Assembly: GCA_046482545.1 (NCBI GenBank)
Contig: JAWOEX010000032.1
Location: 1-64,000, forward strand
Direction: 5' to 3'
DNA length: 64,000 nucleotides
Source: Candidatus Thorarchaeota archaeon
Lineage (GTDB): Archaea; Asgardarchaeota; Thorarchaeia; Thorarchaeales; Thorarchaeaceae
The notes beneath the pieces are model-generated. The model was not told the DNA's origin. It did no database searches and worked only from the letters and a program-made list of their open reading frames with translations. The position numbers and the translations under genes were made by a program. Every line of letters starts with the position of its first letter. Position 1 is the first letter of the stretch. Shown here one piece after another: positions 20,385-36,681 of the stretch.

Positions 20385-21563
20385 ATGGCCGAAGTCCTAA
20401 CCAAGCCAAGTCGTCGCATAACAAATATGGTAGCCAAAGAGCTTCGGCTTATTGTCAAAGATAAAGTGGCGCTCTTTCTGATTTTCCTTCTTCCTGCTGC
20501 TCTTATCGGAACGCTATACTTTGTAACTGAGGAAAGCGGGATGGGAGGAACGCAGATGGATGGTGGTGAATCCGGTGAATCGGACGGTGCGGCAAACGAG
20601 ACCATATATTCCGATGTCACGTTGGGGCTCATCGATTTTGATACAACCCGTACCTATGATGGCGAAGACCTCTCAAAGAATTTGACGGCGTTCTTGCGCA
20701 ATTTCACCGGAGAACTCATTGAATACAATACTTCAGATGCCGCTTTTGACGCACTATACGAGAAAGAGATTATTGGCTATGTCGTGATACCGGATGGATT
20801 TGAGGCTAATCTTACAATTAATGAACCGACCTATGTTGAGCTGCACACAGATGCAACAGAATTGGTGGACCAGTCCACAGTTCAGGGAATCGTTCAAGGT
20901 GCGATAATCTCCTTTCGCGCATCACATATGTGGATTCAATCAGAAGTCTTCCCTTCGATGACAATGGAATTCGTCCCCGATGCTGGCTATATTGAGAGTC
21001 AGTTTGGAGGTTTTATTGTGATATTCTCCAGCTATCTTGGGATAGCCATGACTGCCGCACAGTCGATTGTAGGTGATATCCCTCTTAGAAGGATGCTTCT
21101 CACTCCAACCAATAGACTTGAAGTAATACTAGCCAAGGTGGCTGGCTATGTTGTTATCGGTTTTTTCCAATCACTATTGCTAATCACATTGTGGATTGTG
21201 GTGTTTAATCTAAATCTCAACACCGGCTTTCTAACATTAGTGTTGATTATGAGCCTAGTGTCGCTCACCGGCTCGGCTACTGGAATCTTGATATCTGCTG
21301 TTGCATCATCGCGCCTTCAAGCCAATCAGATGTTCTTGTTTGTGCTTTTTGGCACTCTGATTCTTGCGGGATTCTTCATTGATGTGGGCGCGCTAGACGA
21401 AATCCTCCCTCTGAACCAAGGATTGGACCTACTTATAAGTACAGCATTCAAGGGATTGAATATATTCGAGGTGTGGCTCCCGATTATGAAGCTACTTGGC
21501 TTTTCCCTCCTTGCTATCCTAGCAGCGACGGTAATCTTCTCCAAAAAGCCAACTCTTGGTTAG
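20385..21563 (+). CDS. ABC-2 type transporter permease
   Basis: MVAKELRLIVKDK, extracellular loop GYVVIPDGF, RMLLTP..LEVILAK, several C-terminal TM helices; GAGGT RBS. Confidence 0.9.
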   Translation: MAEVLTKPSRRITNMVAKELRLIVKDKVALFLIFLLPAALIGTLYFVTEESGMGGTQMDGGESGESDGAANETIYSDVTLGLIDFDTTRTYDGEDLSKNLTAFLRNFTGELIEYNTSDAAFDALYEKEIIGYVVIPDGFEANLTINEPTYVELHTDATELVDQSTVQGIVQGAIISFRASHMWIQSEVFPSMTMEFVPDAGYIESQFGGFIVIFSSYLGIAMTAAQSIVGDIPLRRMLLTPTNRLEVILAKVAGYVVIGFFQSLLLITLWIVVFNLNLNTGFLTLVLIMSLVSLTGSATGILISAVASSRLQANQMFLFVLFGTLILAGFFIDVGALDEILPLNQGLDLLISTAFKGLNIFEVWLPIMKLLGFSLLAILAATVIFSKKPTLG

Positions 21564-21572
21564 GTGATTTAA

Positions 21573-23252
21573 GTGACAAGTAATACAACCCGAGATACAG
21601 AGTCAAGCGAGAAGCCGTCATTCATAGAGGAGGCCTTCTTTTCTGGAGCCAGAATGAACGAAGCCTTGGATTGGTGTCTTGCCCGTAAGGATCGTGAGCT
21701 CCATTGCGAAGTGCAAGGAAATCTCACTTCTACGGATGAAAATGTACGATTCCGTGGTAGAATTCTAGATATCAAAAAAGGGGTCATTAAACGACGCCTG
21801 GCGGTTCTTGTAGAGGAAAACTTGAGTAGAGAAAGCCGTGGAGAACTTGATCAAGTTGTAACTGTAGGAGGTCAAGGTTCATCCCATGAGGATATTGCAG
21901 CTACACAACTTACTCTTCAGAACTACTTGAAGCGTAACCTTTTCGACGATTTCTTCTACGAAGGTGGCGAACTCCAGCAGCTAGTAAAGGATCTAGAGAA
22001 AGTATTGGGTAGTCAGGAGGTGACTTGCACAGTCTGGGGCGAGAGGGTTTCTGATAAGCTGCCAATTATGATTAGGGGAAGCTTAGTGGGAGCTTCCACG
22101 CAACCCGCTCCCATTCTACCTGAGGGTTTTCTTGAGGTTCGGGTTGCACCAGAAACTTCGGTTGGTGACCCGCAGATATTCCTTGTCTCTCAACCACAGT
22201 TCCTGCTCGGCCCCCGTTCGGATCCAGACCTTACTATTCTGGCCGATAAGATTTACGTACAGCCGCTTGCTTGGAAACAGGCCCCTGCCTACCGAAATGT
22301 GCTTGAAGCTAGGAACCTCACCGTTACTGTCTCGAGTGGTATGAAAATTATTGAGAATGTATCCTTCTCGATTAATGAAAGTGAGATGCTTGCCATCATC
22401 GGCGAATCGGGGGCAGGCAAATCTACCTGTATCAAGGCGTTGATTGGAGATATTCCGAGTACTGGTGTAGCTCGGATAGCAGGGATTGATTCACGGCAAA
22501 CGCGCAAGGTCCGCCATTTCTTTGGCTACTGCCCACAGGACCTTAGCTACATGTATGAGACTTTCACACCTCTTGAGAACATTATCGCATTCGGGAAACA
22601 GTATGATATTCCCGAGTGGCAGCTCATTAAACGAGGCAAAACACTACTTCGGGACTTTGGTATACTGGAGAAGGGCAACGAGCCTGTCGCGGAACTCAGT
22701 GGTGGTCAACAGCGCAGAGTCTCCATAGCTATTGCTCTAGTCCATCGGCCGAAGGTCCTTCTCATGGATGAGCCCACAAGTGGATTAGACCCCGATAACC
22801 GTTCAGACCTCTGGCACTTCTTGGATTACGTTAATCAGGAGTACGGAACCTCTATTGTTGTCGTTACACATTACCCCTCTGAAGGAGAATTCTGCGACAA
22901 GGTTGCAGTTTTCATGCGGGGTAAGAGTCTGGTGGCATTTGGCAGTCCCGCGAAACTCAAGCAATCCATGCCTTCACGCGGTTTCGCTGTCGGAGTGGTA
23001 TTGGAAGATGTGGATCCACGAGCTCGTCCTACGCTTGAAGAAGTGGAGGGTGTTAGTTTTGTTCTCCAGAGAGGAGAATTTCTTAAAGTGTTTACCGAAG
23101 ACCCATTACAAGACATTGCCGAACGGTGTGTACGCGGCCTGGAAGAGAATGATATAGCCGTAAAAATTGTCAAGACAAAATCTGTAGCCGATATGGTAGA
23201 TTATTACATCGCCATAACACGCGGACTGATTGCAGGTACAATTGAGAAGTGA
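21573..23252 (+). CDS. ABC transporter ATP-binding protein with ~240-aa N-terminal extension
   Basis: GESGAGKST, LSGGQQRR, LLMDEPTSGLD, VVTH; AGGTGA RBS. Confidence 0.9.
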   Translation: MTSNTTRDTESSEKPSFIEEAFFSGARMNEALDWCLARKDRELHCEVQGNLTSTDENVRFRGRILDIKKGVIKRRLAVLVEENLSRESRGELDQVVTVGGQGSSHEDIAATQLTLQNYLKRNLFDDFFYEGGELQQLVKDLEKVLGSQEVTCTVWGERVSDKLPIMIRGSLVGASTQPAPILPEGFLEVRVAPETSVGDPQIFLVSQPQFLLGPRSDPDLTILADKIYVQPLAWKQAPAYRNVLEARNLTVTVSSGMKIIENVSFSINESEMLAIIGESGAGKSTCIKALIGDIPSTGVARIAGIDSRQTRKVRHFFGYCPQDLSYMYETFTPLENIIAFGKQYDIPEWQLIKRGKTLLRDFGILEKGNEPVAELSGGQQRRVSIAIALVHRPKVLLMDEPTSGLDPDNRSDLWHFLDYVNQEYGTSIVVVTHYPSEGEFCDKVAVFMRGKSLVAFGSPAKLKQSMPSRGFAVGVVLEDVDPRARPTLEEVEGVSFVLQRGEFLKVFTEDPLQDIAERCVRGLEENDIAVKIVKTKSVADMVDYYIAITRGLIAGTIEK

Positions 23253-35373: not shown

Positions 35374-35379
35374 TGAAAA

Positions 35380-36681
35380 TTGATAAGAAAACTTTTCCCT
35401 AAAACCTGGGAGGGAGAGCAGAAGTTGGAGTCAAAAAAGCTCCTAGGGAATATTCAGCGAGTTCTGGATTCCGTAGGAATTGACCGGCATATAGACACTG
35501 ACCGTCTCCGCCGGCCCGAAATTGGGGATTCTCGAAGGGAATATCTCACTGAACTCGAAGAAAATCTACGCAGCATGATTGATTCATTTAGTGATGATGA
35601 ACGTCTGGCCAGCACGCTCATGAGACTTGCCAATTTACACTTCCAGGACGGCAACCTAGGAAAGGCAATTATGCTGTATGAAGTGGTACTGGGCATTGAG
35701 CCAAATCGTCCAGAGCCCCTCATGTATATGGGCATAGCATATCTTTTTGCCGATAAGCCAAACGAAGCCGTGGAATGTTTCCGTGTTATCAATAGAATGC
35801 AACCAGATGAAGCAGAAGTACTAGCGTATTTGGCTTTGGCTGAAGTTCATGCTGGCGAATTATCTCGTGCAAGAAGACATTTGGATAGGGCTGTTGCTCT
35901 CGCACCTGAATCTGACAGAACAAAGTACGTTAAGGCGATTTTCTTGGAAGCGATGGGAAAGAAAGAAGAAGCAGTTAGTGAGATAGACCACCTCCTAGAA
36001 ATCAATCCCGGTTCATTTCCAGCACTCCTTGAGCTAGCGAGAATGAAAACTGAACAAGGGGAAATAGAGGCCGCCAAGAAGCTTCTCGATAGAGCTCTGA
36101 ATATGGACCCAGCTCATCCAATAGCTCTTTCTGCCCTAGGTGACATCTTCTATAAGCTAGACCAATATGAGGCGGCCCTCTACTATTTCGACAAAGCGAT
36201 TGGAATCAATTCCGAGTCTTCTGAGCTATGGGTGAAAAAGGGTGATGCTCATTTAGCTCTGAGAGCAATAGAACAGGCTCATAATGCATATGAAAAAGCC
36301 GTTGGTCTGGATCCCGAAAACGCCTCAGCTTGGATGAAAAATGGTGAACTGCTGGCTCTACAAGGTGACAAGTCTGCTGCACTGAAGTGTTATGATACCG
36401 CCATCTCACTAGAACCAGAGAATGCAGACTATGCACACCAGCGAGGTATGCTTCATGTCGCGATAGGACAGCTTGAGAACGCGTTGATAGATTTCGATAT
36501 TGCGCTCGCAGCAGAACCAAGCAATCCCATCCATGTCTATCAGCGGGCAATTGTATTGGAACTTCTAGATAGGCCAGAAGAAGCAAAGCGGACATGGGAA
36601 ATCGCGCGCGACTTGTATGAGAGCATCGGCAATGCCACCAAAGCAGCTGAATGCTCAGCTCGTGCTAGAAGACTTGCTTAG
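35380..36681 (+). CDS. Tetratricopeptide repeat protein (~10 TPRs)
   Basis: Repeated 34-aa units, e.g. AWMKNGELLALQGDKSAALKCYDTAISLEPEN; starts 6 nt after the giant gene. Confidence 0.92.
   Translation: MIRKLFPKTWEGEQKLESKKLLGNIQRVLDSVGIDRHIDTDRLRRPEIGDSRREYLTELEENLRSMIDSFSDDERLASTLMRLANLHFQDGNLGKAIMLYEVVLGIEPNRPEPLMYMGIAYLFADKPNEAVECFRVINRMQPDEAEVLAYLALAEVHAGELSRARRHLDRAVALAPESDRTKYVKAIFLEAMGKKEEAVSEIDHLLEINPGSFPALLELARMKTEQGEIEAAKKLLDRALNMDPAHPIALSALGDIFYKLDQYEAALYYFDKAIGINSESSELWVKKGDAHLALRAIEQAHNAYEKAVGLDPENASAWMKNGELLALQGDKSAALKCYDTAISLEPENADYAHQRGMLHVAIGQLENALIDFDIALAAEPSNPIHVYQRAIVLELLDRPEEAKRTWEIARDLYESIGNATKAAECSARARRLA

Follow-up and report, generated by a model that had tools for sequence, protein, structure and literature searches.

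The gene string and its spread among Asgard archaea

Six plus-strand open reading frames (ORFs) occupy positions 20385-36681 of the stretch analysed here, a window of 64,000 nucleotides (nt) that corresponds to bases 1-64000 of contig 22 in a 3.05-Mb Thorarchaeota-type genome. The genes, g1 to g6 in Table 1, encode an ATP-binding cassette (ABC) permease, two ABC ATPases (g2 and g4), a membrane-anchored pseudo-subtilase (g3), a giant surface protein (g5) and a tetratricopeptide repeat (TPR) protein (g6). Packed closely into a single string, they are conserved as such across Thorarchaeia. The junctions from g1 to g6, read off the sequence, measure 9, 4, 1, -1 and 6 nt, the start codon of g5 shares one base with the stop codon of g4, and the internal starts are preceded by purine-rich strings. 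The starts of g3, g4 and g5 were picked within longer ORFs, that of g4 (TTG at 27641) being the least certain. Both flanking genes, at 17876-20155 and 36686-40015, lie on the strand opposite to the operon. An earlier note on this DNA had described six co-directional genes in one operon, with one permease, two intact ATPases, two large single-pass tailed proteins and a soluble TPR protein; the coordinates and all five junctions are exactly as it claimed, and Pfam, sequence motifs and hydropathy agree on the parts.

The topology of all six products was predicted by hydropathy. No transmembrane (TM) helix is predicted in g2, g4 or g6. Both g3 and g5 have an N-terminal signal-like segment and a single C-terminal TM helix followed by a basic (Arg/Lys) run, which would leave cytoplasmic tails of 78 and 125 amino acids (aa). 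N-glycosylation sequons occur at 1.8-3.1 per 100 aa in the ectodomains, compared with 0-1.25 in the cytoplasmic proteins.

Table 1. Positions in the window of the six genes and of the parts recognized within g2 and g3
Feature	Position	Strand	Description or basis
g1	20385..21563	+	ABC-2 permease, 392 aa
g2	21573..23252	+	240-aa N-terminal extension, then ABC ATPase
g2 N-terminal domain, residues 1-240, cytoplasmic	21573..22292	+	two tandem helix-plus-beta-barrel units
g2 ABC ATPase and DrrA-type C-terminal domain	22293..23252	+	PF00005, E 8e-28; TIGR01188 drrA, 176 bits
g3	23257..27639	+	1460-aa membrane-anchored pseudo-subtilase with GIFT domain
g3 S8 (subtilase) fold, catalytically dead	23743..24600	+	alignment to Tk-SP 3afg
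g3 beta-super-sandwich, residues 483-749	24703..25503	+	as at the N-terminus of GH15, GH94 and GH116 sugar enzymes
g3 GIFT domain, residues 985-1243	26209..26985	+	disordered Gly-rich insertion
g3 TM helix (residues 1364-1382), basic patch and 78-aa helical cytoplasmic tail	27346..27636	+	hydropathy, model helices, alignment
g4	27641..28615	+	second ABC ATPase, 324 aa
g5	28615..35373	+	2252-aa propeller/TSP3-repeat surface protein
g6	35380..36681	+	soluble TPR protein, 433 aa

Loci of about 20 kb from 20 genomes were compared, two of them shorter at contig ends; related genomes are non-independent samples, and the family tallies below are counts, not statistics. The six-gene order is identical in nine of nine loci inspected from the Thor order, which comprises family f1 and its sister family f2. 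Apart from the window's own genome, eight genomes of these two families show it, one with a truncated g5. In every Thor-family genome for which matches to g2 and g3 are listed on the same contig, the two genes are neighbours. Beyond this order the arrangement varies. Family f12 has g1-g2-g3-g4 without g5 or g6, and in f1, f2 and f12 alike g3 sits between both ATPase genes. In Candidatus Freyarchaeum (f19) the block g2-g1-g4 is divergent from g3. Loki-type genomes (genus g39 of f9, and f24, which includes Candidatus Harpocratesius) show permease-permease-g2-g3 with a g4-type ATPase at the locus edge. In Jordarchaeales (f7) and f30 both parts are present, with g3 apart and g2-g1-g4 elsewhere. 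Orthologues of g1 adjoin g2 in six Asgard families. Identity to the window declines in step for the four core genes from other Thor genera to Loki-type genomes, from 76 to 34% for g2, 75 to 41% for g4, 70 to 28% for g1 and 58 to 25% for g3.

Among the loci examined, orthologues of g5 and g6 are found only in the Thor order, while the core of g1, g2, g4 and g3 also occurs in Lokiarchaeia-type, Jordarchaeales, Freyarchaeum and Hodarchaeales genomes. The four-gene core is older than the Thor additions and is Asgard-wide. Operon conservation, the check that the earlier note had proposed, is borne out in that all six genes are co-conserved over the whole family; they are not, however, one ancient unit.

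The N-terminal extension of g2 provides a second view of this distribution. It is single-copy in f1 (73 of 76 genomes), f2, f7 (5/5), f12 (17/19), f19 (6/6) and f30, and weak in one of seven f24 genomes. With a profile of this domain, no match appeared in f22 (three genomes of 4.8-5.9 Mb), genus g24 of f9, or f5. The families having this domain are those with long g3-type matches, f21 aside: in all three f21 genomes stand-alone ORFs of 158-166 aa weakly match the domain, and the g3 matches are at the S8 level only. Fused to an ATPase, the domain was found only in lineages having a long g3-type protein.

These observations bear on the simplest explanation of the locus, that an ordinary ABC-2 drug or ion exporter lies by chance beside surface-protein genes. 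The database names of the parts are as generic as such an explanation would expect ("ABC transporter ATP-binding protein", "YbhF", "S8 family serine peptidase"), and the best NCBIfam models for the ATPases are DrrA and RbbA, both under cut-off. Yet g2 and g3 have stayed side by side in at least four different gene orders among deep Asgard lineages, g3 is placed between both ATPase genes, start and stop codons overlap or almost touch, and the ATPase-fused g2 domain keeps company with long g3-type proteins. Chance association is very improbable and close to refuted. The condition under which the earlier note would have failed, a drug exporter that occurs without these partners, is not what the single-copy g2 domain and its restricted occurrence show.

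One single-contig genome (G242:C1) departs from the usual arrangement. The N-terminal 320 residues of its g3 (1588269-1589171) adjoin g2, and the remainder (2059101-2062274) lies about 470 kb off, beside g6. This split is a rearrangement or a misassembly through the operon.

The ABC unit and its pseudo-subtilase partner

The g1 permease matches PF12698 (ABC2_membrane_3, E 4e-24) and PF01061 (E 1e-12) in Pfam. Hydropathy indicates six TM helices, the first two joined by an extracellular loop of 160 aa. Both ATPases carry Walker A, the Q-loop, the LSGG signature, the Walker B Asp-Glu and the H-loop His, and the catalytic motifs of g2 are invariant in 20 orthologues. In g4 the matches to PF00005 (E 5e-27) and drrA (172 bits) are accompanied by no additional domain. 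No substrate-binding-protein gene was detected by Pfam among the six genes of the operon. Intact ATPase motifs, a six-TM ABC-2 permease and the lack of a substrate-binding protein are the features of the ABC-2 (type V) class.

What sets g2 apart is its extension, which matches PF11495 (Regulator_TrmB) with E 1.5e-10 and 41 bits against a cut-off of 22.2. The match covers the last 80 positions (151-231), that is, the C-terminal beta-barrel subdomain of the TrmB effector domain. In TrmB this subdomain holds most of the sugar contacts. An AlphaFold 2 (AF2) model of g2, with a predicted local distance difference test (pLDDT) score of 86, has two like units at residues 19-121 and 127-231. A profile of the extension compared with TrmB structures (3qph/2f5t) gave a weak match (E 0.1) in which the second repeat corresponds to about TrmB 256-313. 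The first unit alone retrieved no TrmB chain with phmmer, and the extension gave no result in the ESM Atlas. The winged-helix DNA-binding domain of TrmB was not found in g2, nor did any Pfam helix-turn-helix model match. Judged from the sequence, the extension would be two TrmB-type barrels that likely sense a ligand.

Searched against their own genome with tblastn, g2 and g4 are each other's closest paralogues. Unlinked to the operon, contig 9 (L057:8445-9608, minus strand) carries a paralogue of the g1 permease, 41% identical and not accompanied in this genome by an ATPase gene. Each of the 16 Thor-order genomes sampled has exactly one such additional permease; a tree indicates that the permease was duplicated independently in Loki-type genomes. 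Because g2 and g4 are mutual closest paralogues and an extra permease is available, the working stoichiometry looks like two ATPases with one or two permeases. The contig-9 permease adjoins an Rce1-like CAAX protease gene and another S8 peptidase gene.

The third kind of core component, g3, runs from a signal-like segment through an S8 fold, a beta-super-sandwich, further beta domains, a GIFT domain and an immunoglobulin (Ig)-like domain to the TM helix and helical tail. Pfam recognizes Peptidase_S8 and IFT52_GIFT (PF23355), the latter at 31 bits with a cut-off of 27.2. For the S8 part the best NCBIfam model is mycosin (103 bits, cut-off 278). Aligned to Thermococcus Tk-SP (3afg), the window protein keeps the catalytic Asp and His, the catalytic Ser position is Ala412 (codon 24490-24492) and the oxyanion-hole Asn position is Asp309 (codon 24181-24183). 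Of 20 orthologues drawn from eight Asgard families, a single one retains S at the Ser position and the others have A, V, L, D or G there, so that the active site is lost in 19 of the 20. The oxyanion position is Asp in all 20, and the His is replaced by Arg or Pro in several lineages. Fold-level S8 motifs are conserved. The pattern of substitutions indicates that the active-site loss is ancient, and a dead site in a conserved fold suggests that the S8 fold is kept for something other than cutting.

One such use would be reception. The dead cleft could bind a peptide or protein signal, with the ABC unit as a signalling or flux-sensing partner, by analogy with the Clostridioides CspC pseudoprotease for the cleft and BceAB-type systems for the transporter. 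The retained Asp and His beside a replaced Ser and oxyanion Asn, the invariant Asp in the oxyanion position, the conserved cytoplasmic tail and weak matches to the NCBIfam CspC/CspBA pseudoprotease models would suit a receptor. Those matches are far under cut-off (37 compared with 675 bits), however, the replacement of His in several lineages shows that the chemistry of the cleft is not uniform, and no kinase, regulator or other output gene is conserved beside the module. A role as ligand sensor is accordingly quite unlikely.

The part of g3 behind the protease fold resembles sugar enzymes, IFT52, site-1 protease and OST48. Residues 480-1460 were modelled with AF2 (pLDDT 77.8). The sandwich aligns with 1ug9, 1lf6, 4zlf and 5bvu over 230-245 residues (VIA-align Z 18-22, root-mean-square deviation (rmsd) about 3 A), and the GIFT domain aligns with that of IFT52 (5fms/5fmr; Z 22.8, rmsd 1.9-2.1 A, 21-22% identity). 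A g3 profile run against PDB sequences finds IFT52 (E 1e-12) and site-1 protease (E 3e-4). For the region after S8 the top Foldseek match is site-1 protease with SPRING (9csd, 8uw8; E 4.5e-11). Model residues 399-762 superimpose on site-1 protease 480-872 with a Z of 18.6 over 298 residues, from the strands before GIFT through GIFT, and model residues 507-867 on OST48 45-413 with a Z of 18-19, covering GIFT and the next beta-sandwich. The presence of such a domain in IFT52, OST48 and site-1 protease, to which the earlier note had drawn attention, is reflected in these fold and profile matches.

The tail is conserved as well. Its length, its basic patch and several motif positions are kept in all eight families in an alignment of 21 sequences. 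In a library-wide profile search about 60 clusters (at 50% identity) span the entire non-protease part of g3. Their named members are Asgard archaea (Thor, Promethearchaeia/Loki and Hodarchaeales) with two exceptions, one short contig called "Bathyarchaeota" and one 4-kb contig labelled Bacteroidetes.

Contig 14 of the same genome (L058:8687-11572) encodes another S8-GIFT protein, 961 aa long and without ABC genes alongside. Besides a signal segment and the full Asp/His/Asn/Ser set it has a TM helix (917-935) and a tail of 26 aa. Its sequence marks it as a probable counterpart of g3 with an intact catalytic set and as the closer functional analogue of site-1 protease. In another genome (L069, G197:C106:7400-11900) the g3 orthologue has one in-frame TAG at about residue 646, in a well-conserved stretch, which could reflect an error in sequencing, recent pseudogene formation or read-through.

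The Thorarchaeial additions and a mechanical alternative

The g5 protein begins with an FG-GAP-type beta-propeller at about residues 30-420, where FG-GAP_3 and the BBS2/BBS7 propeller models score. Residues 400-2099 consist of about 60 Asp-rich TSP3-type calcium repeats (Pfam TSP3_bac, E 1e-165, 25 matched stretches), and this stalk is 25% Asp. A TM helix at 2109-2127 is followed by the 125-aa, beta-rich cytoplasmic tail (34996-35370), which is conserved within the Thor order. In a comparison of language-model features, to be taken only as a lead, the tail is nearest to adaptin/coatomer appendage Ig domains (scores 0.84-0.89). It has no Pfam or PDB profile match, and the appendage likeness has no support from hidden Markov models (HMMs).

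Parts of g5 recall two known surface proteins. The TSP3 calcium repeats are like those of CglD of Myxococcus gliding (NF033765, 470 bits), though that score sums 15 repeat stretches, the best covering profile positions 139-311 of 1124, and is not a full-length match; unlike CglD, g5 has no VWA domain. Integrin alpha, too, is a single-pass receptor tipped with an FG-GAP-type propeller. Unlike integrin, g5 has no thigh or calf domains and no beta subunit.

The soluble g6 matches TPR_2 (E 9e-41) and other TPR models. A single orthologue is found in 64 of 76 genomes of f1, and wherever it shares a contig with g3 in that family it lies 7.7-12.4 kb downstream on the same strand. TAG recoding in five g6 orthologues was considered and rejected, the matches having run upstream past the true start. 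In one single-contig Thor genome (L041, G236:C1:2851700-2871699) g5 is only 818 aa long, the genes after it are unrelated and on the minus strand, and a search for a g6 orthologue there gave none.

Two further explanations for these genes were set aside. Export of g5 by a type I secretion system is contradicted by its own signal segment and TM helix and by the ABC-2 class of the ABC unit. An assembly like IFT or the BBSome fails on topology. The propeller and GIFT domains would be outside and the TPR protein and tails inside, so the echo of IFT and the BBSome is one of folds and not of assembly.

Other genes near the module recur in several lineages. TPR genes neighbour g3 in f1, f2, f7 and f19; in Jordarchaeales and Freyarchaeum this is a TPR_12/SNAP-like protein of about 317 aa, unlike the Thor g6, encoded tail-to-tail directly after g3 (L049:10266-11225 and L052:8799-9749). 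A Ras-family gene directly follows g4 in f12, another lies within the ABC locus of f30, and an Arf/SRPRB-like gene is about 2 kb from g3 in f24. The small-GTPase loci beside the module are L046:9517-10050, L047:9504-10028, L061:8215-9054 and L055:7760-8644. Since Asgard genomes are rich in both kinds of gene, the TPR and GTPase neighbours are not counted as significant, and the GTPase genes could be there by chance.

With these parts in view, the module could be a mechanotransmission device or adhesion switch in which there is no export. The ATP cycle of g2 and g4 would reshape the ectodomains of g3 and g5 through the membrane parts and the tails or, in a reverse variant, binding outside would control the ATPase. 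There are precedents: FtsEX drives the dead LytM protein EnvC, and NosFY drives NosD. Both proteins with large ectodomains keep conserved tails on the cytoplasmic side, selection has maintained g3 as a dead enzyme, and the g5 propeller on its calcium-repeat stalk has an integrin-alpha-like layout. The TPR and Ras-family genes next to the module and the appendage-like g5 tail would also fit. However, the known mechanotransmitting ABC systems are mostly type VII (MacB, FtsEX, LolCDE), whereas nearly all ABC-2 systems are exporters, NosDFY being the exception. In addition, most lineages with the core lack g5 and g6, the adjacency of TPR and small-GTPase genes may be accidental where such genes are common, and HMMs do not support the likeness of the g5 tail. 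Mechanical or signalling work is, on balance, the main rival of the export reading, rather less likely than it and a less remote prospect than a signal receptor.

A proposed export machine and its relatives

The best reading of the locus, a tentative one that falls somewhat short of an even chance, is a single ABC-2 complex with the dead protease g3 as its fixed outside subunit, together with a scheme for export. The two parts differ in strength. From the combined analyses the core probably forms one exporter-type (type V, ABC-2) membrane complex to which g3 belongs as a permanent auxiliary subunit. Its membrane part would be a g1 dimer, or g1 with the unlinked paralogue, its motor a g2-g4 heterodimer, and g3 would serve on the outside as GldG does for GldA/GldF.

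The export scheme, taken as a whole, is considerably more doubtful. ATP hydrolysis would extract a component of the envelope from the membrane, at a guess a lipid or polymer carrying a glycan, or some other amphipathic component. The two TrmB-type barrels of g2, as a cargo or ligand sensor, would bind a ligand that gates or feeds the cycle. The envelope component would then be handed to the g3 ectodomain, where the dead cleft, the sugar-enzyme-type sandwich and the GIFT domain may bind rather than cut, and the conserved g3 tail would dock on the cytoplasmic part, most plausibly on the g2 extension. To this machine the Thorarchaeia may have added g5, an adhesin or receptor of integrin-alpha-like form stiffened by calcium, and g6, whose TPR protein could act as an adaptor for the tails. 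Together these two would give the machine a role in surface attachment in the Thor order.

Several observations favour a fixed complex that exports. The folds of the g3 ectodomain (the sandwich like those N-terminal in glycoside hydrolases (GH-N-like), GIFT, and the OST48 and site-1 protease resemblances) are of binding or scaffold types. The gene junctions are tight, g2 and g3 remain adjacent across varied gene orders, and the g2 N-terminal domain and g3 occur together. The dead site of g3 is ancient and has its invariant Asp, the 78-aa tail is conserved in all families, and the ectodomains are denser in N-glycosylation sequons.

Other points tell against it. The complex is a prediction from the genes, as is the tie of the unlinked permease to it. 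No glycosyltransferase or lipid-carrier gene is conserved beside the module in the loci examined. The sugar theme is a resemblance of modelled folds, and GIFT domains and GH-N-like sandwiches may also be plain scaffolds. The link to TrmB consists of one Pfam match and a weak profile match, and inserted genes separate g6 from g5 in some genomes. The long tail and the TPR and Ras-family GTPase neighbours may fit a signalling or mechanical device at least as well. The earlier note had interpreted the operon as an ATP-driven adhesion or mechanotransduction complex "rather than a solute exporter". The conserved operon and its Gld-like layout support part of that interpretation; the idea of an ancient six-gene unit does not hold, and the exclusion of export goes beyond the data, which do not separate export with hand-off from mechanical work.

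The closest bacterial relatives in layout are GldA/GldF/GldG of Flavobacterium johnsoniae, to which the earlier note had rightly pointed: here as there, one set of genes supplies an ATPase, an ABC-2 permease and a membrane protein whose GIFT domain is extracytoplasmic. In Flavobacterium the membrane localisation of GldA depends on both GldF and GldG (PMC9127263). The GldA model TIGR03522 is missed by both ATPases (g2 97.7 and g4 128.3 bits, cut-off 402.6), and no GldF or GldG NCBIfam model matches g1 or g3 at E up to 0.01. Unlike Gld, the operon has two different ATPases, one with TrmB-type barrels; g3, unlike GldG, has 1460 aa that include a dead subtilase and a GH-N-like sandwich and end in a long cytoplasmic tail; and the host is an archaeon that lacks an outer membrane and a type IX secretion system. 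The same three-part layout as in the operon core is found in the bacterial "ABC-type uncharacterized transport system" with ABC_transp_aux (PF09822), a Pfam model that g3 matches at 29.6 bits, under the cut-off of 34.7. In these terms the operon would encode an ABC-2 transporter with a GIFT-type auxiliary subunit.

Individual features of the ABC unit also have precedents. Wzt, of the O-antigen exporter Wzm/Wzt, is an ABC-2 ATPase with an extra cytoplasmic carbohydrate-binding domain that selects cargo, and is the closest precedent for the g2 extension, although the Wzt domain is a C-terminal sandwich and that of g2 is N-terminal and of TrmB type. YbhFSR, with two ATPase domains and two ABC2_membrane_3-type permeases, has the stoichiometry proposed for g1-g4. 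Neither system has a GIFT or subtilase partner. Subtilase folds serve as structural or binding parts of larger machines in the mycosin MycP of type VII secretion and in the CspC pseudoprotease. Here, in contrast, no ESX or germination genes are near the operon and the scores are far under cut-offs.

Among eukaryotic proteins, site-1 protease (MBTPS1/SKI-1; PDB 8UW8, 9CSD) has much the same order as g3, with a signal, S8, a beta domain, GIFT, a TM helix and a basic cytosolic tail. Unlike site-1 protease, g3 lacks the cutting residues (Ser to Ala, oxyanion Asn to Asp) and is encoded inside an ABC operon, and it has in addition the 270-aa beta-super-sandwich and the 78-aa helical tail. Site-1 protease is absent from the best 60 sequence matches to the S8 part of g3. 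In the models the likeness would be one of shared layout and fold, for which common descent and domain shuffling both stand. The whole layout of OST48/Wbp1 is covered by the GIFT domain of g3, the next beta-sandwich, the TM helix and the tail, but no oligosaccharyltransferase (OST) genes are near the operon. IFT52 is cytoplasmic, whereas the GIFT domain of g3 is predicted to be outside the cell. Eme et al. 2023 (PMC10307638) noted WBP1 homologues in Heimdallarchaeia only and did not mention the g3-type family. No description of the operon was found in the literature searched, which covers few subscription journals.

A complex of this kind would define an unnamed, Asgard-wide membrane machine, an ABC-2 motor permanently joined to a surface protein. 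Its g3 shares a layout with two proteins of the eukaryotic endoplasmic reticulum (ER) and Golgi, site-1 protease and OST48, and thereby gives a prokaryotic context for GIFT-domain membrane proteins and a candidate source of the eukaryotic ones. Some of its parts lend themselves to tests, namely the ATPase whose extra domain likely senses a ligand and the dead enzyme retained to bind. For Thorarchaeia it might account for the building or control of a very large, calcium-dependent fibre at the cell surface, a matter that bears on attachment to partner cells. A bolder proposal, improbable at present, is that the family of dead subtilases with GIFT domains is the archaeal stock of the lumenal GIFT proteins of eukaryotes (site-1 protease and/or OST48) and that the Thorarchaeial version is an attachment device. 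If this were so, parts of the ER/Golgi processing and glycosylation machinery would have begun as an outside subunit of an Asgard ABC transporter. The Thorarchaeial engine would then drive an integrin-like, calcium-dependent attachment device from inside, through the conserved tails, the TPR adaptor and the appendage-like domain.

A scan for sigma-70 promoters and terminators gave the same result as shuffled controls, the bacterial consensus being not applicable to an archaeon. The gene divergent from g1 (17876-20155, minus strand) encodes a 759-aa protein that has no Pfam match and was not found in the sister family or beyond. It keeps its position in all Thor-family loci extending that far, with 29-55% identity. 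Between this gene and g1 lie AT-rich, TATA-like strings at 20288-20294 and 20365-20372.

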